Source: an uncultured Candidatus Saccharibacteria bacterium (GTDB taxonomy: Bacteria > Patescibacteriota > Minisyncoccia > Phycocordibacterales > UBA12445). From it: a stretch of DNA of 64,000 nucleotides. Below, piece after piece: positions 3,817-49,860 of the stretch; the first letter of the stretch is position 1; each line of letters begins with the position of its first letter. The stretch lies in assembly GCA_964531375.1 (NCBI GenBank), contig CAZHDO010000001.1:96879-160878 (forward strand). The letters are read 5' to 3'. The notes under the pieces were generated by a model. It was not told the origin of the DNA, did no database searches, and worked only from the letters and a program-made list of their open reading frames with translations. Made by a program: the position numbers and the translations under genes.

Positions 3817-4968
3817 ATGGATATTACCTTGAGAAAAATAAATGTTTTGTTTATTGGTAGTGATATGAAGATATTCGAAGAGGGTAGTGACGCTAATAGG
3901 CGAATGAAAGAATATGGAACCTTGGCCAACCGCTTAGATATTGCTGTTTATAATGGAAATATTTTTATGGGAAGCGAAGACGATGCCTATAAAGTGTCTT
4001 CTAACGTTTTTGCTTATCCAAGAGCTTTGTGGGGGTTGTTTTCTTTGTTTAAGATTAGAACCTGGAGGCTTTCTTTTGTTTTAAATCACAAAATAGATTT
4101 AGTGTCTCCCCAAGATCCTTTTGTTTTTGGTTTTTTGGGTTATGCGATAGCAAGGTGGCTTGGGGTACCATTACAACTACAGGTTCATACAGACCTACTA
4201 AGTCCATATTTTAGAAAGGAATCCCTAAAGAACAGAATCTATGTTTTTATTGCTAAATATCTTTTACCCAGAGCAAATGGTATTAGGGTTGTTTCAAACA
4301 AAATAAAAGAATCGATTGTAAAGGAAATTAAATTAAAAGTAGAACCAGAAGTTTTGCCAATTTGGATTAATACCGAAACTACCAAAATTTCACAGGTCAA
4401 GACAGATCTAAGAAAAAAATATCCGCAATTTGAAAATATAATTTTAATGGCATCAAGAATTACTGTTGAAAAAAATATTTCAATGGCGATTGAGGTTGTT
4501 GGAAATATTATAAAAAAGTTTAATAAGACAGGTTTAATAATTGTCGGAGAAGGTCCTTTGAAAAAGAAATTTGAAGAAGAAGTTTTGAATTTTGGTTTAG
4601 AAAAGAATGTTATTTTTGAACCATGGTCAGATGATCTACCTTCTTATTATAGGACTGCTGATATATTTTTGAATACATCAAACTATGAAGGTTATGGTAG
4701 GACGATTGTAGAAGCTCTGGCTGTTGGAACCCCAGTGATTACAACAGATGTTGGGTGTGCCGAAGAAGTAATTCAAAATAAAAAAAATGGTTATATAATT
4801 CCAGTTAATGGAAAAGATGAACTTCTTGATTGTTTAAATGAATTTATTGGAGATAAAAAAATAAAAGAAGAGATGAAGAAAGCTGTTAAGGATATAGGTT
4901 TAAAACTAATGTCAAAAAATGAATATTTGGATGGATATCTAAAGGGGTGGCTAGATTCTCTTAAATAA
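3817..4968 (+). CDS. glycosyltransferase family 4
   Basis: EGYGRTIVEALAVGTPVITTDVGCAEEVI motif. Confidence 0.8.
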   Translation: MDITLRKINVLFIGSDMKIFEEGSDANRRMKEYGTLANRLDIAVYNGNIFMGSEDDAYKVSSNVFAYPRALWGLFSLFKIRTWRLSFVLNHKIDLVSPQDPFVFGFLGYAIARWLGVPLQLQVHTDLLSPYFRKESLKNRIYVFIAKYLLPRANGIRVVSNKIKESIVKEIKLKVEPEVLPIWINTETTKISQVKTDLRKKYPQFENIILMASRITVEKNISMAIEVVGNIIKKFNKTGLIIVGEGPLKKKFEEEVLNFGLEKNVIFEPWSDDLPSYYRTADIFLNTSNYEGYGRTIVEALAVGTPVITTDVGCAEEVIQNKKNGYIIPVNGKDELLDCLNEFIGDKKIKEEMKKAVKDIGLKLMSKNEYLDGYLKGWLDSLK

Positions 4969-7741: not shown

Positions 7742-7856
7742 CAAGAGAGATTTGGTCATAGATAATTTTTCTGCGAAAAATTTCTACAACCCTGACTCAG
7801 CTTCCTTTCTTGTAGAAAGGGGCCCGCTTCCGTCTTTCGAATCTTGATTTTTGCGC
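7742..7856 (-). repeat. tRNA-3'-linked module, A-type (GGGCCCCTTTCTACAAGAAAGG core), distal copy downstream of tRNA-Ser(GGA)
   Basis: Minus-strand reading: CAAGATTCGAAAGACGGAAGCGGGCCCCTTTCTACAAGAAAGGAAGCTGAGTCAGGGTTG...GTGACCAAATCTCTC. Nearly identical to the cores at 22021-22075, 49640-49700 and 43300-43350(-). Confidence 0.8.
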
Positions 7857-7923
7857 TACAAAAATCATGTCGTAAGATTTCTGCAATAAAATTTCAAGAA
7901 ATTTACGACCAAACCTCTCGGCG

Positions 7924-7969
7924 CAACGACAAACCGTCTAAATGTTTGCACATTTAGACGGGTCGTTTG
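7924..7969 (-). terminator. hairpin between the two modules
   Basis: CAAACGACCCGTCTAAATGTGCAAACATTTAGACGGGTTTGTCGTTG: a long perfect inverted repeat. Confidence 0.5.
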
Positions 7970-8120
7970 CGGAGGGTGAGATTCGGCTTCGACTAAAATT
8001 TTCTTCCGAAAATTTTGTCTAGCCACCGCCTTGCTATTTTGTTCGCCAGATGCTCACAAAATTATAGCTCCAGCGTTCGAATCTCTCGCGCAGGCAAAGC
8101 AGTTTGCCTACTACCCTCCG
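7970..8120 (-). repeat. tRNA-3'-linked module, B-type (GCAAACTGCTTTGC loop inside a mirror copy of the tRNA 3' half), proximal to tRNA-Ser(GGA)
   Basis: Minus strand reads CGGAGGGT (rc of the acceptor 3' strand), then AGTAGGCAAACTGCTTTGCCTGCGC, then GAGAGATTCGAAC (rc of the T-arm). It ends with CCGAATCTCACCCTCCG, a direct copy of the tRNA 3' end. Confidence 0.8.
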
Positions 8121-8125
8121 TTCAA

Positions 8126-8151
8126 TAAAATCACCGCTTTTGGCGGGATTT
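8126..8151 (-). terminator. hairpin immediately 3' of tRNA-Ser(GGA)
   Basis: AAAATCCCGCCAAAAGCGGTGATTTT on the minus strand. Confidence 0.5.
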
Positions 8152-8159
8152 TAAACGAA

Positions 8160-17937: not shown

Positions 17938-17985
17938 TAAAATAATGAAGTAAATATGCTAATATTTACTGACTATATTTTTTAA

Positions 17986-18240
17986 GGGTAGGGGTAATCG
18001 AAAAGCCGCAGTCGGGCCCCTTTCTGCAAGAAAGGGAGGCGAGGCGGGGCCGAGAGTACTTAGTCCGCGCAATATTGCGAAGCAATATGAGCAGACTTAG
18101 TAACTCGTGGCTCGATTACCCGCGCAAACAAACTGCTTTGTTTGCGCGGGTAATCGAAAAGCCGGAGTATATCGCCGAAGGCGATACGAGGCGGGGTAGC
18201 GGCCGAGCGGAGCGAGAGCTGTGACTCGATTACCCCTACC
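17986..18240 (+). repeat. two tandem tRNA-3'-linked modules downstream of tRNA-Gly
   Basis: Module 1: GGGTAGGGGTAATCG (rc of the tRNA-Gly 3' end), then AAAAGCCGCAGTC, then GGGCCCCTTTCTGCAAGAAAGGG, then AGGCGAGGCGGGGCCGAGAGTACTTAG...CTTAGTAACTCGTGGC-TCGATTACCC. Module 2: the GCGCAAACAAACTGCTTTGTTTGCGCGGGTAATCGAAAAGCC hairpin, then CGAGGCGGGG...GAGCTGTGAC, then TCGATTACCCCTACC, a direct copy of the tRNA 3' end. Confidence 0.8.
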
Positions 18241-18269
18241 TTAATAGCGAAAATATTCAGAAGTTGATA

Positions 18270-21959: not shown

Positions 21960-22006
21960 CAAAACAACCAAACAAATGTGAAAACATTTGGGTGGTTTTG
22001 TTTTGT
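21960..22006 (+). terminator. hairpin immediately 3' of the tRNA
   Basis: CAAAACAACCAAACAAATGTGAAAACATTTGGGTGGTTTTGTTTTG. Confidence 0.5.
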
Positions 22007-22007
22007 A

Positions 22008-22127
22008 GCCACAGCAGAAATTGAAAGACGGAGGCGGGCCCCTTTCTGCAAGAAAGGGAGCTGAGTCAGGGTCGCGGAAATTTTTATAATAAAAATTATC
22101 TGTGACCAATTCCTGCTGGGAGCACAA
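22008..22127 (+). repeat. tRNA-3'-linked module, A-type, downstream of tRNA-Arg
   Basis: CACAGCAGAAATTGAA (rc of the tRNA T-arm/acceptor region, 1 mismatch), then AGACGGAGGCGGGCCCCTTTCTGCAAGAAAGGGAGCTGAGTCAGGGTCGCGG, then ...TCTGTGACC, then AATTCCTGCTGGGAGCACAAA, a 21-nt direct copy of the tRNA 3' end. Confidence 0.85.
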
Positions 22128-22169
22128 ATCTGATAGTGTTTTATTTTTATAATATGATAAAATACCAAC

Positions 22170-23014: not shown

Positions 23015-23052
23015 TTTAAAAAACAGACATATTTGTCTGTTTTTTAAATGGT
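23015..23052 (+). terminator. hairpin 3' of tRNA-Phe
   Basis: TTTAAAAAACAGACATATTTGTCTGTTTTTTAAA. Confidence 0.6.
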
Positions 23053-23229
23053 TTCGAGGGAGAAAGCAAACTGCTTTGCTTTTGGGCGGACTTGAAAAGC
23101 GGAGCCATGTTGCGAACCGCCCTTAGGCGGGAGGAACAGGCGAGCTGGGGCCGAAAGTACTTAGATTTTTATGAGCAAAGCGACATAAAAAACTTAGTAA
23201 CTTGTGGCCAAGTCCGCCCCTCGGCACCA
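23053..23229 (+). repeat. tRNA-3'-linked modules (B-type hairpin plus A/D-type tail) downstream of tRNA-Phe
   Basis: TGGTTTCGAGGG, then AGAAAGCAAACTGCTTTGCTTTT, then GGGCGGACTTGAA (rc of the Phe T-arm), then AAGCGGAGCC...GGCGAGCTGGGGCCGAAAGTACTTAG...CTTAGTAACTTGTGGC, then CAAGTCCGCCCCTCGGCACCA, a 21-nt direct copy of the tRNA 3' end including CCA. Confidence 0.85.
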
Positions 23230-23326
23230 AAAAATCAAAACCCCAGTAAAACTGGGATAAACTATCTCTTTCAGGTAGTTTGTTTGGTTATCTGGGGAAA
23301 ATAATGTTATTATTTGTCTATAATTT

Positions 23327-36618: not shown

Positions 36619-36621
36619 CAT

Positions 36622-36650
36622 AAAAACTGTCCCTAAAAGGGCAGTTTTTG
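36622..36650 (+). terminator. hairpin 3' of tRNA-Val
   Basis: AAAAACTGTCCCTAAAAGGGCAGTTTTT. Confidence 0.65.
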
Positions 36651-36651
36651 T

Positions 36652-36780
36652 TTGGGCGATAGGAAGCAAACTGCTTTGCTTCCGACAGGACTCGAAAAGG
36701 TTCTCCGTTATGTTTAAGAAATTTTTATTTCTAAAACATCGGAAACCTATACAGTCCTCGTAGAGGAAGAGTCCTGTATC
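36652..36780 (+). repeat. tRNA-3'-linked module, B-type, downstream of tRNA-Val
   Basis: TGGGCGAT (rc of the acceptor), then AGGAAGCAAACTGCTTTGCTTCCG, then ACAGGACTCGAA (rc of the T-arm), then AAGG...ACAGTCCTCGTAGAGGAAGAGTCCTGTATC. The terminal copy matches the tRNA 3' end AGTCCTGTATC. Confidence 0.8.
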
Positions 36781-36842
36781 TTTTAATTGTGGTGTTTTTA
36801 ATCTAAAAACCCCGCCTACGCGGATATCTCGAGATTGTTGTA

Positions 36843-42829: not shown

Positions 42830-43012
42830 TTATGTGGAAATCTCTAAAGAAGACGGATCTTCATTTTCTATATAAAGTGCAGTAGCTTCTCTTATATTGT
42901 TTTCTAGTTCCGGTAATGTTTTTCCGAATGTAAAAATAGGGAAATCCACCGCCTTAGCGCAGTAAACATCATCCTCATCTTTTTTGATTGTAAATTGAAT
43001 TATACTTGACAT
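42830..43012 (-). CDS. HicB-like antitoxin family small protein (tentative)
   Basis: 60-aa protein YCAKAVDFPIFTFGKTLPELENNIREATALYIE, resembling the UPF0150/HicB-N fold signature. Confidence 0.45.
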   Translation of the reverse strand: MSSIIQFTIKKDEDDVYCAKAVDFPIFTFGKTLPELENNIREATALYIENEDPSSLEIST

Positions 43013-43134
43013 ATAGTGATTATATACTATTTTTTTAATATGATCAGGCGCCTTTCTTCCTAATTTTCATTTAGGATTTTTCTCGTCGAAATAGTACGGG
43101 TTTTGTTCCTGGGGTCGTTAGGACAATCAACCTT

Positions 43135-43430
43135 TCTAAAACCTACGGGGAATTTCGGTTGTTACACAACCAGTAGCCTGATTGGATTTTTTCTTCGTTC
43201 TTCGAACTCCAAAAAATGCTCAATCAGGTTTCGAATCCCCGCCGAAATATGGAGGGATACTCGGTCACGCATAAATTTCTTGGCAGAAATTTTGCTCGAC
43301 CCCGACTCAGCTCCCTTTCTTGCAGAAAGGGGCCCGCTTCCGTCTTTCGAATCCCCGTAGGGGCCCATTAAAACAAAATCACCGAATGCTTTCGCATCCG
43401 GCTCATTTGTTTTATGACCCTACGGGGATG
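43135..43430 (-). repeat. orphan pair of tRNA-3'-linked modules (A-type plus C-type) with tRNA-Glu-derived flanks
   Basis: Minus strand: ATCCCCGTAGGGTCAT, then a hairpin, then GGGCCCCTACGGGGATTCGAAAGACGGAAGCGGGCCCCTTTCTGCAAGAAAGGGAGCTGAGTCGGGGTCG...GTGACC, then ...GGGGATTCGAAACCTGATTGAGCATTTTTTG...GAAATTCCCCGTAGG. Confidence 0.8.
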
Positions 43431-43515
43431 GAAATGGAACTCTTTATTTGAAAATATAAAGAAGATTGTCGATTTGCGGGAGGAGAAAAGTTTCTAGATT
43501 AAAAGTTTTTTAAAA

Positions 43516-44748
43516 TCATTTCGTGTATTTTTCAAGGAGTTCTGTAGATGTTGAAGTTTCTGTGATATTTTTAGTTTCAATGTAAGAAACTATATTTTTA
43601 TTTATTTGTAGTGCTCTGCCGTTTTTATTATTTGTGGCCACAACAAATAAAAATTGGTTGTCTTCTCCGATAAGAAATATTTTTTCGTGATTAAAAACAA
43701 GTGTCGAATCGTTTGCAATAATTTTAACAAGTCGAGGTTCGCCACCCCCTATTACAAATGATATTTTTGGGAAAATTGTGGCGCCAAAGATAAATAATGA
43801 TGCCAATAGGGGGATGACTAGTTGTTGGGCTACAATCTGTAAATTTCCATAATTACTTATATGTTCAATAAACTTTAATTTAAGTTGTTCGGCAGGCAAT
43901 TCTGTGTTGTTTAAAAATATATATATGGTAAAAATTGAAGAAAATAACCAAGAAAATAGAAGCCCTTCGTTTATTGGCTGAAAGTAAGAAAAAGACTGGA
44001 AATCAAATAACTCAATACGAAGTTTTAAAAATGAGCAAATAGCAGTAGAAATATATAGACAGATAATTAATATGTCTAAGCTAAAAATAAAAAAAGAAAA
44101 ATAATTATTATAGGTTTTATCTTTTTCTTTTTCAGTTATAAGTATCGCCAACTGGGAAACATCGGTTTTATCAATATCTTTTTTTATCTCACACTTCCTT
44201 CTAAGAGATATTATCCAGGAGTTGATGGTTGTTAGGCATGCTATGGCAATAATAAATAGGAACAAATAAGAAAAAGAATAAAGCCAGAACTTTAATATGA
44301 AGTTTGCACCCAATGAAATATTTATCGGAATTTGTAAAATTTTTTCGCCAATAAAATCATAATTACCAAACAATGGTTTAAATATTAATATCTGATTATT
44401 TAGTGGGGTTGTATATAAACCGATTTTCATCAATTGAGATAAGGCAAGATCTGCTATCAAAAGATAAATTAATATTTGTAGATGATTTAGAAATCTTTTT
44501 TTCCAACTTTTTATTTCAAATAGTTTATCAATTGGGATATGTGCATACATCAACCATGATAGAAACATTGCCACAGTTAGAGATAGTAGTGGGTAAATTC
44601 CAGCTATAATATAACGGGTATTTATTAAATCGAAACTTACTATCCCAAACCGAGAAAGATATGCGTTTATACAGATAAAACCAAAGAAGTATAAAATAGC
44701 AGACGGTATGATGAGTATTTTAGATACTTCTTTTAGTTTGTCGAACAT
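43516..44748 (-). CDS. hypothetical polytopic membrane protein with C-terminal soluble domain (island cargo)
   Basis: About 8 hydrophobic helices. No motif. Confidence 0.5.
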   Translation of the reverse strand: MFDKLKEVSKILIIPSAILYFFGFICINAYLSRFGIVSFDLINTRYIIAGIYPLLSLTVAMFLSWLMYAHIPIDKLFEIKSWKKRFLNHLQILIYLLIADLALSQLMKIGLYTTPLNNQILIFKPLFGNYDFIGEKILQIPINISLGANFILKFWLYSFSYLFLFIIAIACLTTINSWIISLRRKCEIKKDIDKTDVSQLAILITEKEKDKTYNNYFSFFIFSLDILIICLYISTAICSFLKLRIELFDFQSFSYFQPINEGLLFSWLFSSIFTIYIFLNNTELPAEQLKLKFIEHISNYGNLQIVAQQLVIPLLASLFIFGATIFPKISFVIGGGEPRLVKIIANDSTLVFNHEKIFLIGEDNQFLFVVATNNKNGRALQINKNIVSYIETKNITETSTSTELLEKYTK

Positions 44749-44924
44749 ATTTTTTATAAAAAATATAAATTAAGTATCACTTTAAATTTAAGAAAATTCT
44801 TATTCTCTGTGTGGTTGTATTGTGTCGATACTTTTATCATATTTTTTAGTTTTATACAATAAAAATTATTTAATTTAAAAACCCTACATAGTAAATGCAA
44901 TAAATCTTTTTTTTATTAAAAAAA

Positions 44925-45136
44925 TTAAAAATCAGTAAGCTCGTTGACTTTTAGCCCTAGTGCTCCAGAGATTTTATCCATATTTGTAAGAGTAATATTT
45001 TTTTCTGCTCGTTCAATCATCCCGATATATGTTCTGTGACTTTAGCCAGTGCGCCAAGTTTTTCTTGAGAGATACCTCTTTTCATTCTTTCTTCTCGAAC
45101 CCTTTTGCCGAATTTTATAAGTATTTGTTTGTTCAT
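44925..45136 (-). pseudogene. XRE-family (Cro/CI-type HTH) transcriptional regulator carrying a frameshift
   Basis: The first frame reads MNKQILIKFGKRVREERMKRGISQEKLGALAKVTEHISG then a stop. The +2 frame continues GMIERAEKNITLTNMDKISGALGLKVNELTDF, the rest of the HTH_XRE domain. This implies a 1-nt deletion near 45017. Confidence 0.6.
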
Positions 45137-45221
45137 ATCTACACTAAAAGTGTAGATTCTTGCTAACTTTAGCTCTACATACTATAGTTAGCACATATAT
45201 TTAAATAAATGTAATTAAAAT

Positions 45222-45716
45222 ATGTTCTTAATATTAATTTTTGTGGTTATTTTATGGCTTCTGGTAAAATCATTGACCTATGATAATCAGGCAAACGATA
45301 TTGAAGTCAAAAAAGAAACCGTTATTGAATATTTGCCTTATTATAAAAAGAATTACTTGATGACAGGAGCCGAACATAACTTTTTTAAAGTTTTAAATTC
45401 TATTGTTGATAATAAATATTATATTATTCCTCAGGTTGGATTATCTAAAATCGTGGGTATTAACGGTTCTGATAGATATAACTATACTTATTTAAATAAA
45501 ATAGATAGAAAATCTTTGGATTTTGTCCTTTTCGATAAAGATAGTTTTTCTCCCATTGTGATTATCGAACTAGATGATAGCTCCCATGAAAGAGAAGATA
45601 GAAAAGAGAGAGATTCTTTTGTTGATAAAATTGCCCAAAAAATTGGTTTAAAAATTGTTCATATCAAAACTTCTTATAATTACGATTTAGAAATGTTAAA
45701 GAAAGATATTTTTTAA
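45222..45716 (+). CDS. DUF2726 domain protein (restriction-endonuclease-like fold)
   Basis: HNFFKVLNSIV...YYIIPQVGLSKIV...SLDFVLFDKDSFSPIVIIELDDSSH...KIGLKIVHI matches the DUF2726 pattern. Confidence 0.6.
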   Translation: MFLILIFVVILWLLVKSLTYDNQANDIEVKKETVIEYLPYYKKNYLMTGAEHNFFKVLNSIVDNKYYIIPQVGLSKIVGINGSDRYNYTYLNKIDRKSLDFVLFDKDSFSPIVIIELDDSSHEREDRKERDSFVDKIAQKIGLKIVHIKTSYNYDLEMLKKDIF

Positions 45717-45956
45717 ATAATTATTTCTTTGCATTTTTGTGTTAGCACAAGATAATGAGCTTGGGCATTGCTCATGTAGTATTTTCCCTTATAAGGAAGA
45801 AAATCAACCACAGGGTTTTGAACAAGTTAAGGGGTTAAATAAAGCGAATGGAATGAGCCCGGTATTGCGGTAATCAACCATAGAATCTTGCTTGTCGTTT
45901 TTGTAGGTGGACAAGATTGGTGAATTTAAAGAAATTTTAAGTGACTACTAGGTTAG

Positions 45957-46667
45957 GTGATCATGGACATTTTGTTATTTCGTGTTAGATTTCTATTTAT
46001 GGATAGTTATCTAGCAGATAAGATTAAAATTTTAGAGATGATTTGTGCGTCTTTGCCTCCGATAAATGTAATCGAGAATGACGATATAGAGTTATCATAT
46101 TTTGAAGACGAGTTTGTGTTTGAAGGATTATCCTATAATACAGCAATTAATTTATTGAGGGAGGTATTGGGCAAGGGTTTGATAAATAATTTTAATCCAA
46201 ATATTTTTGAGAATAATAAAAGAGGGATTAAATTTACTGTCGGGCGGGATATAGAAATTTATCTGAGGAAGATTAAATATCCAGGCTATGAAGATGGACT
46301 TTTGGGTGCATATATGGAACATCAAATTTTCGATAATGAAGTCCCTAAGGGTGTTTTAAAAACTCCTATTATTATTAATGATAAAAAAGGTATTTATAGA
46401 TTAGATAAACCCGAGTTGTTTTATGGAGTAAAAAATCCATCAAAGCGTTTTGATTTAATTATTTATCTTAGCTGTAAAGACAAGGTCTCGGTTTCGGAAT
46501 TAGCGAAAGAAACAAAACAGGGTCAAGCTGTAATTATGAAAGAAATAAAAAATATAAATTCTATTTTTAGAAAAAAATTAGCCGTTGTTAGTGATTTAAT
46601 TAAACATATTGAAACTAGTGGATATTCTCTTAATAAGGATGACTTTGATATAAAGATTCAAACATAA
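45957..46667 (+). CDS. hypothetical protein (island cargo), possible C-terminal winged-helix segment
   Basis: ORF. VSVSELAKETKQGQAVIMKEIKNIN is HTH-like. Confidence 0.4.
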   Translation: MIMDILLFRVRFLFMDSYLADKIKILEMICASLPPINVIENDDIELSYFEDEFVFEGLSYNTAINLLREVLGKGLINNFNPNIFENNKRGIKFTVGRDIEIYLRKIKYPGYEDGLLGAYMEHQIFDNEVPKGVLKTPIIINDKKGIYRLDKPELFYGVKNPSKRFDLIIYLSCKDKVSVSELAKETKQGQAVIMKEIKNINSIFRKKLAVVSDLIKHIETSGYSLNKDDFDIKIQT

Positions 46668-46781
46668 CCTTTGGTGGGTGTTAACAACCTCTTTTACAAG
46701 ACCTTAAAATAAGGTCTTTTTTGTCTGTAGGGTTGTCTAAAAGTTATCTTGTTAATTGATTAATCTTGTTGCTAGTCACGT

Positions 46782-46810
46782 TTCCTGCTGTCGCTTAAGC
46801 GAAGCAGGAA
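46782..46810 (+). promoter_or_regulatory. candidate rolling-circle double-strand origin hairpin upstream of rep
   Basis: TTCCTGCTGTCGCTTAAGCGAAGCAGGAA is a perfect inverted repeat, followed by the GTCGAGCGAAGCGAGAC iteron-like repeat. Confidence 0.4.
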
Positions 46811-46863
46811 GTCGAGCGAAGCGAGACTGTTTACTTGATTATAACAACACTTAGAGAGAAAGT

Positions 46864-47664
46864 ATGAAAGTTACTAATTTAAAGGTTATCGTTACTGGTT
46901 CTATAATTGAGGTTTATTTTTATCCTGAAAGGGTGCTTGCCTATGACTATCAATCAAATAAAGGCGTTAATTCTGGTGTGAATAGAATTATTGACCAAGA
47001 AGAAGATCTTAGAAACAAGGAATCATCTGTTAATCGGACTAGGTCTAATCTAAAAAGATTAATTAATGCAAATGTCTATATTCCAAACAATCCTTTTTCT
47101 CCTGTGTTTTGGACATTAACCTTTAAAGAAAATATTCAGGATTTAAAGGTTGCCAATAAAATATTTTCTAAATTTATCAAAAGACTTAATTATTTTGTCG
47201 GAAACGGGACAAAAAAGACTTTTTTAAAATATGTTGTTGTTCATGAGTTTCAAGAAAGGGGAGCTGTTCATTATCATGCTATATTCTTTAATCTTAAATT
47301 TATTCATGTAAATATTCTTGCTGATATCTGGGGTCAGGGTTTTATTAAAATAAATAAAATTGATTGCGTTAAAAATATCGGTTCTTATATTTCTAAATAT
47401 TTAGGTAAAGATCTTGCTGGTGGTAAGTTGGATGGACATAAGAGATATTTTTCAAGTAGAAATTTAAAACGTCCTATTTTTATAAAAAATCAACAGGCTT
47501 GTGAAGAAATATTAAAAAATATTCCCAAGGAATTTTTGGTTGACAGTAGGGAGTTTCAAAGTGAATATCACGGAAAGGTTTTTTATACTCAATTTAATAT
47601 TGGTAATAGTGGATATCATGCAGGTTTAATTAAAAGAGTAGCAGGACCTTGCGATAATGATTGA
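46864..47664 (+). CDS. rep: HUH-superfamily rolling-circle replication initiator (Rep)
   Basis: Motif 1 FWTLTF, motif 2 GAVHYHAIFF (HUH), motif 3 SYISKYLGK (YxxK). Confidence 0.75.
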   Translation: MKVTNLKVIVTGSIIEVYFYPERVLAYDYQSNKGVNSGVNRIIDQEEDLRNKESSVNRTRSNLKRLINANVYIPNNPFSPVFWTLTFKENIQDLKVANKIFSKFIKRLNYFVGNGTKKTFLKYVVVHEFQERGAVHYHAIFFNLKFIHVNILADIWGQGFIKINKIDCVKNIGSYISKYLGKDLAGGKLDGHKRYFSSRNLKRPIFIKNQQACEEILKNIPKEFLVDSREFQSEYHGKVFYTQFNIGNSGYHAGLIKRVAGPCDND

Positions 47665-47842
47665 TCTCCAGAAATGCCGACAAATTGCACCTGAACTTTC
47701 TGATATATCAGACGAAGATCTTCAAAAAATTCTTGATTCTCTTTACGAATTGGGTAATTTGGCTTTTGATGTTTGGATTGATAAAAATAAGAGTTCGAAA
47801 TATCCCCATAGGTCAAATGGATTAATTAAGGAGGATAAGTAA
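47657..47842 (+). CDS. hypothetical small protein (island)
   Basis: 61-aa ORF between rep and the recombinase; overlaps the rep stop. Confidence 0.3.
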   Translation: MIDLQKCRQIAPELSDISDEDLQKILDSLYELGNLAFDVWIDKNKSSKYPHRSNGLIKEDK

Positions 47843-47848
47843 AATACT

Positions 47849-49378
47849 ATGAATATGGCCGAAACAAGAAATGGAATAATTTATTGCCGAGTTTCTTCTT
47901 TGGAACAGGTAGACGGCACAAGTCTCGAATCTCAAGAGAGGGTTTGTAAGGAATATGCTCAAAGATTAAATATTAATATTACTGGAATCTTTATTGAAAA
48001 AGGAGAGTCAGCTAAAACAGCAGATAGAACAGAATTTAATAAGGCGGTAGCTTTCTGTTCTGTTAAAAAGAATCAGATCGAATATTTTATTGTATACAAA
48101 CTAGATAGGTTTGCTCGAAATCAAAATGACCATGTAGCTGTTAAGCAGATTCTAAGCAAACACGGGGTCAAATTACGCTCTACAACAGAACCTGTTGATG
48201 ACACACCAACAGGCAAACTCATGGAGGGTGTTCTCTCTTCTTTTGCGGAGTTTGATAATAATATCAGGAGAGAGAGAAGCGCTGGTGGTATGAGAGAAAG
48301 AATGAAGCAGGGGATTTGGGTTTGGAGAGTTCCTCTTGGTTACTCTCGTGTTGGTAAGGGTAAGGGAATAAATATTTCTCCAGATCCAAAATATGCCCCA
48401 TATGTTAAATTAGCTTTTGAAGAATATTCTAAAGGTATTTATACATTTAAATCACTGGCTAACTTTTTAAATGAAAGGGGTTTTGTAACTGAAAACAACA
48501 AGCGAGCCGTTCCGCAGTTAACGGAAAAATTAATTAAAAATAAATTATATTGCGGAATAATAAGTGTTCCAGATTGGAATATTGAAACCAAGGGAATTTT
48601 TGAACCAATAATAAGTGAGGATTTATTTTATAAATGTCAGGTTGGGGGCAAAAGAAGTATTCCTCATCTTGAAAAGAATATCCTATTTCCTTTAAGAAAG
48701 TTTGTCGTTTGTGAGCTTTGTAATAATCCTTTTACAGGTAGCTCTTCTACTGGAAAATGTGGCGTTAAATATCCTTATTACCATCATCAGAAACAAAAAT
48801 GTATCCATGCTCAATATATCTCCAAGGACGATTTAGAAAATAAGTTTGTGGAACTTCTAAATAAAATTAATCCTAGTCAAAAGTTTTTAAAATTATTTAG
48901 AGAAGTTGTTTTGGATATTTGGAAAAATAATTATCAAAAGATTTCAAATGATAACAAAATAATTAAAAGGGATATCGATAATTTAGAGTTAAAAAAACGA
49001 ACAATATTTAATAAACATCAATCGGGAGTTTACACAGACCAAGAGTTTATCTTTGAGAAAGATCTTGTTAATAGACAGATAGCTGAGAAGAATCTTTTAA
49101 TAAAAGACGAAAGGGAAGATAACTTTAATATGGAAGAAGCATTGGACTTTAGTATTGGATACATTAAAAACACTTCCAAAACATGGCTGGATTTAGAAAA
49201 TGATTTTGACAAGAGAATAAGGTTCCAAAAATTGATTTTTGAACAAAAATTAAAATTTATTAAAAATGAATTTGGAACTCCAAAATTAAGCCCAATTTAT
49301 GAGCTTAATAAGCAGTTTTTAGTTAATCCAACAACGTTGGTGACCCTACGGGGATTCGAACCCCGATTTCCACCGTGA
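47849..49378 (+). CDS. large serine recombinase (integrase)
   Basis: N-terminal resolvase domain GIIYCRVSSLEQ (catalytic Ser) plus YKLDRFARN, then a recombinase domain and a Cys-rich zinc-ribbon region (CELCNNP...C). The C-terminus reads through the tRNA-Glu 3' end. Confidence 0.85.
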   Translation: MNMAETRNGIIYCRVSSLEQVDGTSLESQERVCKEYAQRLNINITGIFIEKGESAKTADRTEFNKAVAFCSVKKNQIEYFIVYKLDRFARNQNDHVAVKQILSKHGVKLRSTTEPVDDTPTGKLMEGVLSSFAEFDNNIRRERSAGGMRERMKQGIWVWRVPLGYSRVGKGKGINISPDPKYAPYVKLAFEEYSKGIYTFKSLANFLNERGFVTENNKRAVPQLTEKLIKNKLYCGIISVPDWNIETKGIFEPIISEDLFYKCQVGGKRSIPHLEKNILFPLRKFVVCELCNNPFTGSSSTGKCGVKYPYYHHQKQKCIHAQYISKDDLENKFVELLNKINPSQKFLKLFREVVLDIWKNNYQKISNDNKIIKRDIDNLELKKRTIFNKHQSGVYTDQEFIFEKDLVNRQIAEKNLLIKDEREDNFNMEEALDFSIGYIKNTSKTWLDLENDFDKRIRFQKLIFEQKLKFIKNEFGTPKLSPIYELNKQFLVNPTTLVTLRGFEPRFPP

Positions 49379-49412
49379 AAGGGTGATGTCCTAACCATTA
49401 GACGATAAGGCC
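49338..49412 (-). tRNA. tRNA-Glu (anticodon TTC), CCA encoded
   Basis: rc: GGCCTTATCGTCTAATGGTTAGGACATCACCCTTTCACGGTGGAAATCGGGGTTCGAATCCCCGTAGGGTCACCA. The acceptor has two G-U pairs. Confidence 0.8.
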
Positions 49413-49487
49413 GTTTGTATTTAAAATACAAAACTAATATAACATTATTTTGAAAAAATGCAAAAAGTGTGGTAGTTTTTAGGTACT

Positions 49488-49574
49488 GGAGGCGTGGGTG
49501 AGTGGTTGAAATCACCGCATTCGAAACGCGGCAGACCTTAACGGGTCTCGGAGGTTCAAATCCTCCCGCCTCCG
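49488..49574 (+). tRNA. tRNA-Ser (anticodon CGA), type II; CCA not encoded
   Basis: Acceptor GGAGGCG/CGCCTCC, anticodon loop TTCGAAA, long variable arm AGACC..GGTCT, T-arm GGAGG-TTCAAAT-CCTCC, discriminator G. Confidence 0.75.
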
Positions 49575-49860
49575 TAAATGGCCCACTTAAATTTGAAAAC
49601 ATTTAAGTGGTTCGCCATTTTAAGAGGCGAGAGGATTTGAAGGACGGAGTCGGGCCCCTTTCTGCAAGAAAGGGAGACGAGTCGGGGTCGAACAAAATTT
49701 TCGTAGAAAATTTATGTGTGACCAAATCCTCCCGCCTCCGCAGGAGTTTGAAAGCAATTTTAAATTGCTTTCAAAAAGAGGATTTGAAGCCTGATTGAGC
49801 ATTTTTTGTCTGTAAGATTCAAATCCTCCACTGGTGGTTTTGAAAGTTAACAGTAAAATT
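49575..49860 (+). repeat. tRNA-3'-linked modules (hairpin, A-type, hairpin, C-type) downstream of tRNA-Ser(CGA)
   Basis: Hairpin CCACTTAAAT...ATTTAAGTGG. Then GAGGATTTGAA (rc of the T-arm), GGACGGAGTCGGGCCCCTTTCTGCAAGAAAGGGAGACGAGTCGGGGTCG...GTGTGACC, then CAAATCCTCCCGCCTCCG, a direct 3' copy. Then hairpin GAAAGCAATTTTAAATTGCTTTC. Then GAGGATTTGAAGCCTGATTGAGCATTTTTTG...ATTCAAATCCTCC. Confidence 0.85.

Follow-up and report, generated by a model that had tools for sequence, protein, structure and literature searches.

The analysis presented here concerns a stretch of 64,000 nucleotides of CPR (candidate phyla radiation, or Patescibacteria) DNA, referred to below as the window. It suggests, with a probability of roughly 0.7, that positions 43415-49355 of this 64-kb window are a site-specific integrative rolling-circle replicon, that is an integrative plasmid, of 5.9 kb located at the 3' end of a tRNA-Glu gene. 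The element combines a rolling-circle initiator protein (Rep) with a large serine recombinase (LSR), its putative integrase, and its GC content is 29.8% compared to 35.2% and 35.6% in the two flanks. An earlier note on this DNA had read the same region as an integrative plasmid-like or phage satellite-like element. That reading is supported by the boundaries of the element, by the profile matches of its proteins, by the recurrence of the gene block as a family, by a relative present at two sites and by the GC content. Of plasmid and satellite, the plasmid is favoured, since the element has neither virion genes nor conjugation genes.

Sequence and family comparison show how integration took place: the LSR recombined the outermost 3' bases of tRNA-Glu(UUC) with an attP site into which the end of its own gene extends. 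Integration left an intact tRNA at attR, and a 15-bp fragment of the tRNA together with the original terminator at attL. In the proposed model of the excised state, the 5,926-bp circle would replicate by the rolling-circle mode with Rep nicking at CTTGATTATAACAACAC, as in the related mini-plasmids and inoviruses that have a similar Rep and box. The XRE regulator, which is now frameshifted, would have controlled the switch between these states, and two further genes, encoding a 410-amino-acid (aa) membrane protein and a DUF2726 protein, would be variable cargo. The features are collected in Table 1.

Boundaries of the element

The right end of the element lies within the tRNA gene itself. ARAGORN and the open reading frame (ORF) agree, as the earlier note had stated, that the LSR gene ends about 41 nt inside tRNA-Glu on the opposite strand, and the final 13 codons of the LSR are the antisense strand of the tRNA (49338-49378). 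The tRNA scores 62.4 bits in Rfam, which argues that it is intact. The 15-mer TGACCCTACGGGGAT, described in the same note as a direct repeat of the tRNA 3' end, is indeed present in exact copies at 43415-43429 and 49341-49355, and only 0.03 matches would be expected in shuffled sequences even with 2 mismatches permitted.

Three independent lines of sequence evidence back both proposed boundaries, and with them the interpretation of the two repeats as attL and attR. First, a displaced tRNA-Glu terminator begins 12 nt past the left repeat, on the strand of the tRNA. Second, the DNA to the left of 43415 has the trailer layout that is typical of the other tRNAs of this genome (described below), with its inverted copy at +53 to +69. 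This layout fits only if 43415-43429 once formed the end of tRNA-Glu, which supports the left boundary. Third, the left repeat is bordered on the element side by a P' arm motif. Related elements, whose left junctions were located by comparing occupied sites, share there the consensus GGAAnTGGAAC, also written (G/A)ATTGGAAC, about 20 nt from a GTGA core, and (C)GGAATTGGAAC is present at an equal distance from the GTGA(C/T)CC core at the left junctions of loci L033/L035, L039, L071, L076 (twice) and L079. The junction motif of 43415-43445 was not detected at the other six tRNAs of the window, hence it is not a general feature of the trailers.

On the attR side, the discriminator and the encoded CCA come from the element (GGGTCA-CCA), and the displaced original reads GGGTCA-TAAAAC. 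The junction sequences are ...GTTTTATGACCCTACGGGGATGGAAATGG at attL and ...ACGTTGGTGACCCTACGGGGATTCGAACC at attR, and the predicted sequences of the two parental sites are ACGTTGGTGACCCTACGGGGATGGAAATGG for attP and GTTTTATGACCCTACGGGGATTCGAACC for attB. Both attL and attR were reconstructed in 6 elements, and the core common to the junctions is 7-9 bp in the relatives and 15 bp in the window element. Longer direct repeats were also sought in the relatives and none of 10 nt or more was found; the 7-9-bp cores came from the comparison of junctions. When aligned on the tRNA, the core common to several family members is TGA(C/T)CC, which corresponds to tRNA nucleotides 68-73 (the last bases of the acceptor stem and the discriminator), and from these alignments we infer a crossover near nucleotides 71-73. 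Because the cores of the relatives are only 7-9 bp, the remainder of the 15-bp identity would reflect a resemblance between the P' arm and the tRNA (B') arm and not crossover sequence.

The integrase

Profile searches confirmed both the recombinase and the Rep in Pfam as well as in PHROG. The LSR matches Resolvase (PF00239, 1.1e-32, residues 10-156), Recombinase (PF07508, 8e-12) and Zn_ribbon_recom (PF13408, 25.9 bits compared to a cut-off of 25.3), and in PHROG it matches family 95, 'integrase' (2e-79). Matches in the PDB are to the catalytic domain of TP901-1 (3bvp) and to the C-terminal domain of the A118 integrase (4kis/6dnw, 5e-07 to 6e-07). The motif YCRVSS..Q is invariant in an alignment of 10 sequences, and homologues were found in 1,259 clusters at E<=1e-50. 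The 2.9 million viral contigs of IMG/VR contained no close relative of the LSR, either by single protein or by 10-sequence profile.

Since the ORF crosses the att core, the integrated integrase takes its last 7-13 residues from the antisense strand of the host tRNA. After excision the reading frame would continue into the P' arm, and the tail is predicted to gain about 15 aa. The idea that the circular form encodes a conserved C-terminal extension was considered and dropped, as the predicted tails of two elements are unrelated, and for the same reason the tail is probably dispensable. Integration strips the tRNA of its terminator, so that read-through from tRNA-Glu may run antisense to int.

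Serine recombinases near tRNA genes were also observed outside the family described below. A 700-kb CPR contig (L149, 10001-11549) encodes an LSR that is 53% identical to that of the window and overlaps tRNA-Arg(tct) by 41 nt. No PF23343 Rep was found upstream of this LSR, and a tyrosine integrase is located just past the tRNA. This suggests that the LSR clade that targets tRNA ends is broader than the elements that carry a Rep. Two GTDB Patescibacteria genomes encode distant serine recombinases of 26-27% identity (L006, 5388-6293; L007, 1067-2002), at most about 0.6 kb from the 3' end of tRNA-Arg(ccg) in the first and of tRNA-Lys(ttt) in the second. Such cases hint that tRNA-associated serine integrases are common in Patescibacteria.

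Rep and the candidate origin

The HUH Rep proposed in the earlier note was recovered with PF23343 at 7e-22 (78 bits compared to a cut-off of 27.8) and with PHROG 3419, 'rolling circle DNA replication initiation', at 3.6e-25, while its score with Pfam RepSA was 24.1 bits and thus under the 34-bit cut-off of that family. In an alignment of 18 sequences the columns of the three motifs that had been pointed out are invariant or near-invariant, with F82/T84/T86/F87, H136/H138 and Y175/K178/Y179 invariant, and the tyrosine motif takes the form YxxKY. There are 371 homologues, many of them named from Parcubacteria-type CPR lineages, and the NCBI annotation of the protein, on a contig of 312 kb, is 'MAG: Rep protein [bacterium]' (MAG, metagenome-assembled genome). 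Identity is 27-39% to the initiators of inovirus-like phages, plectroviruses and microviruses and 35-40% to the Reps of 1.5-1.8-kb Firmicutes plasmids.

A perfect hairpin upstream of Rep had been put forward as the candidate origin. The hairpin is present and GC-rich, but it is near-perfect instead of perfect, it is only modestly stable (z = -2.25) and its sequence is not conserved. It is therefore probably part of the origin region and not the nick site, and the origin is better placed at a 17-nt box, CTTGATTATAnnnACAC (CTTGATTATAACAACAC), that lies 24 nt past the hairpin and ends 14 nt short of rep. When 11 sequences from upstream of Rep were aligned, CTTGATTATA..CACACTTA was invariant just ahead of the ribosome-binding site, and the GC-rich hairpins that come before it varied in sequence. 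A single occurrence of the pattern CTTGATTATANNNACAC per locus, on the strand of Rep and upstream of it, was seen in all loci of the closest group of relatives (group A, below). It is found likewise in most of the contigs that encode Zot, in some small circles and in two loci where Rep accompanies a distant LSR (L141 and L144), and its sole occurrence in the window is the box itself. Because this non-coding 17-mer is conserved across Reps that are 36-64% identical, the box is likely the recognition and nick site of Rep, and thus the likely origin.

The box region of the window (ACTTGATTATAACAACAC, 46834-46853) also resembles the phiX174/G4 origin (ACTTGATATTAATAACAC, phiX174 4301-4323), including the CTTG/A context of the nick, and the origin CAACTTG/ATATTAATAACAC was confirmed at 4299-4328 of the phiX174 sequence. 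By analogy with phiX174 gpA, whose cleavage position within the origin we take to be established, a nick is predicted between 46837 and 46838. The resemblance would fit a two-tyrosine, gpA-like Rep and is regarded here as a lead.

A family of related elements

The genomic contexts of relatives were taken from contigs encoding Rep homologues and from scans of viral and metagenome contigs, and were analysed locally. The module of Rep, a 61-aa ORF and an LSR recurs in at least 25 loci, and the relatives as a whole form four groups, A to D. In group A the Rep is 47-64% identical to that of the window and is always accompanied by the 61-aa ORF and by an LSR of 54-86% identity. The stop codon of this LSR lies 25-41 nt inside a tRNA of the opposite strand in every locus with enough sequence except L071, and the tRNAs are listed with their loci in Table 1. 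Cargo varies within the group and includes NgoPII-type restriction-modification, a response regulator, DUF6941, DUF4352 and others. Zot was not found in any of these close-relative loci.

Mobility is best illustrated by a relative of 6,430 bp (measured from the left core to the tRNA end) that is present at two sites. The copy at L033 6143-12572 equals that at L035 1615-8044 except for an anticodon base. The first is at tRNA-Glu(ttc) near tRNA-Ser/Val, the second is at tRNA-Glu(ctc) near murE-ftsI-mraZ, and the flanks are unrelated. The two tRNA-Glu isoacceptors are identical outside the anticodon, and the cargo of this element is an NgoPII-type restriction enzyme with a C5 DNA methylase. Near-identical copies at two tRNA-Glu genes with unrelated flanks show that this relative moved recently.

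The other groups share the Rep in different settings. Group B (Rep 36-39% identical) consists of 5-9-kb IMG/VR contigs that carry a Zot/pI ATPase identified by Pfam, small ORFs and a larger protein of some 565 aa; they are inovirus-like and correspond to the CPR genomes reported by Roux et al. (2019, PMC6813254). Group C (Rep 38-46% identical) comprises dozens of contigs of 1.2-2.0 kb that encode Rep alone and have terminal overlaps, the signature of a circular assembly, and such circular assemblies were found for Rep-only relatives only. Examples among L084-L145 are L086, L095, L103 and L106, with terminal overlaps of 43-141 nt, and these Rep-only circles are among the smallest conceivable rolling-circle replicons. 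A separate 4.0-kb circle (L104) encodes Rep together with a Zot-like ATPase. In group D, Rep adjoins distant LSRs.

Some loci depart from the common arrangement. Two attL-like sites, GTGACCCTAATTATAC(G/A)GAATTGGAAC, lie 644 bp apart upstream of a single element in L076 (5461-5500 and 6105-6145), as if an element had integrated there before and left a scar, or as if part of a tandem had remained. In L071 (255-300 and 5370-5826) the integrase does not end in a recognisable tRNA, and the element lies between the end of a murF-like gene and a repeat-rich flank that is not a tRNA. In L148 (1680-1780) an integrase of 518 aa is followed by a repeated CCTTCTCGAGA motif, again with no recognisable tRNA. 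These two could be secondary sites, degraded tRNAs or other classes of target.

Other genes of the element

The remaining genes agree with what the earlier note had listed. The 410-aa protein is polytopic as described, with 7 hydrophobic segments. It has no match in Pfam, PHROG or PADLOC, and a search of 1.84 billion representatives placed its homologues, about 400 aa long, in 168 unannotated clusters. The two halves of the XRE gene, when joined, give a full HTH_3 match (profile positions 1-55 of 55, 29.7 bits), whereas the first half alone covers only positions 1-22, and the frameshift is therefore real. The one firm match of the DUF2726 protein is PF10881 at 4.6e-27, and it presumably has a nuclease-like fold; a homologue of 40% identity adjoins a related Rep in L126. 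A role for it in defence was considered and not accepted, as the PADLOC match was only 0.0018.

The protein encoded ahead of Rep has only 3 homologues in a search of 5.8 billion proteins, although L030-32 and L077 encode partial homologues at the corresponding place. Its AlphaFold model is poor (predicted local distance difference test score, pLDDT, of 59) and the MarR/winged-helix matches in Foldseek are not significant; the protein is possibly DNA-binding. The 61-aa protein was detected by a local hidden Markov model search in 29 of 29 close-relative loci, and a homologue follows Rep in one Zot contig, the inovirus L058, where it is cut by the contig end. It has no informative Pfam match. 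Its position and size make it the best candidate for an excision (directionality) factor, or else an accessory of Rep.

Table 1. Features of the element and its surroundings in the window, with the tRNA targets of group A
Feature	Position or loci	Strand	Basis and details
Displaced tRNA-Glu terminator	43381-43402	-	Terminator scan; hairpin GCCGGATGC-GAAA-GCATTCGGT and T-run; host DNA just outside the element
attL (proposed)	43415-43445		15-bp repeat of the tRNA-Glu end (43415-43429, from T-loop to discriminator) and P' arm motif
P' arm motif GGAAATGGAAC	43431-43441		Inner side of the left repeat
410-aa polytopic membrane protein, putative cargo	43516-44748	-	ORF; 7 hydrophobic segments of 19 aa
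XRE/HTH_3 regulator, frameshifted at about 45017-45020	44925-45136	-	ORFs 45017-45136 and 44925-45020, overlapping ATGA
DUF2726 protein, putative cargo	45222-45716	+	Pfam PF10881, 4.6e-27
Pre-Rep protein	45957-46667	+	ORF of 236 aa; start probably 45999, giving 222 aa
Candidate double-strand origin	46782-46850	+	Hairpin 46782-46810; GCGAAGC 46816-46822; box 46834-46850
HUH Rep, two tyrosines	46864-47664	+	PF23343 REP_ORF2-G2P; motifs FWTLTF, HYHAIFF, YISKY
61-aa protein	47657-47842	+	ORF between Rep and integrase
LSR, integrase, 509 aa	47849-49378	+	Pfam, PHROG and PDB matches
tRNA-Glu(UUC), attR (proposed)	49338-49412	-	ARAGORN; core copy 49341-49355
tRNA-Ser(cga)	49487-49575	+	ARAGORN
Group A, tRNA-Glu(ttc)	L033/36/37/38/76
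Group A, tRNA-Glu(ctc)	L030/31/34/35/39/40/68/70/77/78
Group A, tRNA-Ala(tgc)	L029/72/79

Alternative interpretations

The alternative that survives best, unlikely though it is, holds that the element derives from CPR inoviruses by loss of morphogenesis, or is a satellite of them, and has retained just the Rep/origin and integration modules. Its single-stranded DNA (ssDNA) would be packaged and exported by a helper inovirus with the same family of origin, like RS1/TLC with CTX-phi. It is kept because origin and Rep are common to Zot-bearing genomes. The group B contigs, with their Zot/pI ATPase, 565-aa protein and ORFs of coat-protein size, have an identical 17-nt box upstream of Rep in most cases, the 61-aa homologue stands behind Rep in the inovirus contig mentioned above, and L039/40/68 encode a pre-Rep protein that shares 47% identity with an inovirus protein of 268 aa. 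A regulator and a Rep with no morphogenesis genes would also match the architecture of RS1, which we take to be established. However, no helper is present within the window and no packaging signal was identified. Additionally, the cargo of the family is of the kind found on plasmids or islands (restriction-modification, response regulator, DUF2726, membrane proteins), and the absence of a close LSR relative from the viral contigs of IMG/VR also counts against this reading. Among the proteins of the element Pfam detected no Zot, and tblastn with two Zot proteins of CPR inoviruses returned nothing meaningful in the window.

A wider version of the satellite idea is a little more doubtful again. 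Here CPR inoviruses would have many helper-dependent satellites, of which the element would be one, reduced to the shared Rep/origin module and a serine integrase for tRNAs, and its ssDNA would leave the cell in the capsids of inoviruses that recognise the same 17-nt box. If it were true, rolling-circle replicons would underlie a system of phage satellites in the ultra-small CPR bacteria, and some of the scars of tRNA 3' ends found behind each tRNA gene of this genome would be the result of serial integrations.

Returning to the integrative plasmid, several results weigh against it. The predicted attB junction TTTTATGACCCTACGGGGATTCGAA had 0 matches in JGI metagenomes, and no circular attP junction or circular contig of the element was found. 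Four assemblies encode the exact flank protein (2 Logan, 1 ENA, 1 NCBI), and these are 99.995-100% identical to the window and all occupied. A Logan unitig passes attR unbranched at the core, which suggests that the excised form was rare or absent in the sample concerned. The XRE gene carries a frameshift, the folds of the intergenic region 45717-45960 were not significant and thus gave no structured single-strand origin, and for the directionality factor there is only a candidate, the 61-aa protein. The core of the relatives is 7-9 bp, so that part of the 15-bp identity is similarity between the P' and B' arms. The sole Logan contig that bears the integrase is collinear with the integrated state, with breaks in the M repeat and at the anticodon of the tRNA but none at the att core. 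A scan of genome contigs with the right-flank protein found 26 CPR loci (Paceibacteria and MAGs labelled 'Saccharibacteria') at no more than 71% identity, and the synteny of tRNA-Glu and tRNA-Ser was kept in none of these 26.

The XRE frameshift, the lack of an excised form in the data and the presence of occupied sites only mean that the window copy may be decaying or deregulated. In the strict form of this idea the genes and the repeat are real, but the copy is an immobile remnant that is passed on as an inert part of the chromosome. This is improbable, although it accounts for the occupied sites, for the assembly graph that is unbranched at the att core and for the frameshift, which is present in all four assemblies, and although the integrase of one relative (L029) is interrupted by a stop codon. 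On the other side, Rep, the 61-aa ORF and the 509-aa LSR are intact with all conserved residues kept, the origin box and both att arms are intact as well, and loss of a repressor would favour activity and not block it.

Finally, it is very improbable that the element is an integrative mobilizable element (IME) in which Rep serves as a relaxase at an origin of transfer (the box) and transfer depends on a conjugation-like or type IV apparatus encoded elsewhere: relaxases of the rolling-circle-initiator type and serine integrases are known in streptococcal IMEs, and one related locus (L037) has T4SS_pilin genes in its host flank, but similar Reps sustain Rep-only circles of 1.2-2 kb, Firmicutes mini-plasmids and inoviruses, which argues for a replication initiator, and no coupling protein or other transfer gene was seen in any family member examined.

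tRNA trailer units

The trailer layout used above as evidence for the left boundary is a feature of the genome in its own right. All 7 tRNAs of the window carry a composite trailer (7800-8158, 17939-18260, 21961-22130, 23015-23235, 36620-36785, 43100-43414 and 49576-49830). A terminator hairpin comes first and is followed by an inverted copy of the 3' end of the same tRNA (+48 to +72). Next is a structured scaffold, about 75-110 nt long, and last a second copy of this 3' end, in direct orientation, which starts from the T-loop and lies at +147 to +195. Five of the scaffolds share the core CCCTTTCTTGCAGAAAGGGG and others have a GCAAACTGCTTTGC mini-hairpin, and a second, more degenerate unit often stands next to the first. 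The inverted and direct copies pair to a stem of 17-20 bp around a two-hairpin junction, and the sequence of this stem varies with the tRNA. The unit was not found in Rfam, in the other CPR loci that were fetched or in IMG/VR, where the M scaffold had 0 matches in viral contigs. Scars of serial integration, non-autonomous integrative elements of about 150 bp and a structured RNA are all possible explanations. Between the host genes and the trailer units of tRNA-Glu there is also a 60-aa ORF (42830-43012, minus strand) with a weak match to a HicB-like antitoxin (0.0025), and no HicA-like toxin was seen beside it.

Comparison with known systems

Two kinds of element similar to the one described here are already known: the tRNA-integrated elements that combine a Rep with an integrase, namely the actinomycete integrative and conjugative elements (AICEs) of the pSAM2 type, and inovirus prophages with serine recombinases. 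In full-text searches of the literature, neither a Zot-less family with the order Rep, 61-aa ORF and LSR nor a clade of serine integrases that targets tRNA ends with attP over its own stop codon was found described, and literature searches turned up few mobile elements of Patescibacteria. The family adds a compact, recurrent element of 5-7 kb that moves restriction-modification, regulators and membrane proteins among the tRNA-Glu and tRNA-Ala sites of reduced genomes. The integrase clade, with more than 1,200 clusters, offers compact enzymes with predictable att sites, and these integrases together with the candidate origin might be developed into genetic tools for organisms in which such tools are scarce or lacking.

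The pSAM2-type AICEs share the general plan, as they are small, lie at a tRNA 3' end that is restored upon integration, and use an HUH Rep to replicate the excised circle. However, pSAM2 has a tyrosine integrase with Xis and an FtsK-like transfer protein, whereas the window element has an LSR and no transfer gene (Pfam detected no FtsK-like gene in it), and pSAM2 is an element of about 11 kb from Actinomycetes compared to 5.9 kb in CPR.

Inoviruses, including those of CPR in IMG/VR, are alike in the family of their Rep (36-43% identity), in the 17-nt box upstream of it and in integration at tRNAs or att repeats, and some carry serine recombinases, which have been noted in integrated inoviruses as S-rec (PMC6813254). 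They differ in having a pI/Zot ATPase, a large adsorption-type protein and coat genes, all of which the window element lacks, and the LSRs of the Zot contigs are only about 30% identical to that of the window. The likeness to RS1 and TLC, the satellites of CTX-phi in Vibrio cholerae, is a conceptual one. These too are integrated and have a rolling-circle initiator and a regulator with no morphogenesis genes, but they integrate at dif through the XerCD proteins of the host, whereas the window element would use its own LSR at a tRNA.

The LSRs of phages (A118/LI, TP901-1, phiC31 and Bxb1) have the same architecture of resolvase, recombinase and zinc-ribbon domains and a similarly short identity at the att core. 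Characterised phage LSRs mostly target protein-coding genes. The clade of the window LSR instead targets the last nucleotides of tRNAs (Glu, Ala, Arg), with an attP that overlaps the integrase stop codon, and the window enzyme is coupled to a rolling-circle Rep and not to a tailed-phage genome.

Cryptic plasmids of Firmicutes, such as the 1.8-kb plasmid of Brevibacillus borstelensis (NC_004938) and the 1.5-kb plasmid of Geobacillus (NC_022994), and the circles of 1.2-2 kb encode a homologous Rep of 35-46% identity, and some of the metagenomic circles share the origin box with the window element. These replicons are autonomous and have neither integrase nor att site, whereas the window element adds an LSR and cargo and is chromosomal. 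The family joins three lifestyles on one Rep and origin: an integrated element, a Zot-bearing inovirus and a mini-plasmid of 1-2 kb.

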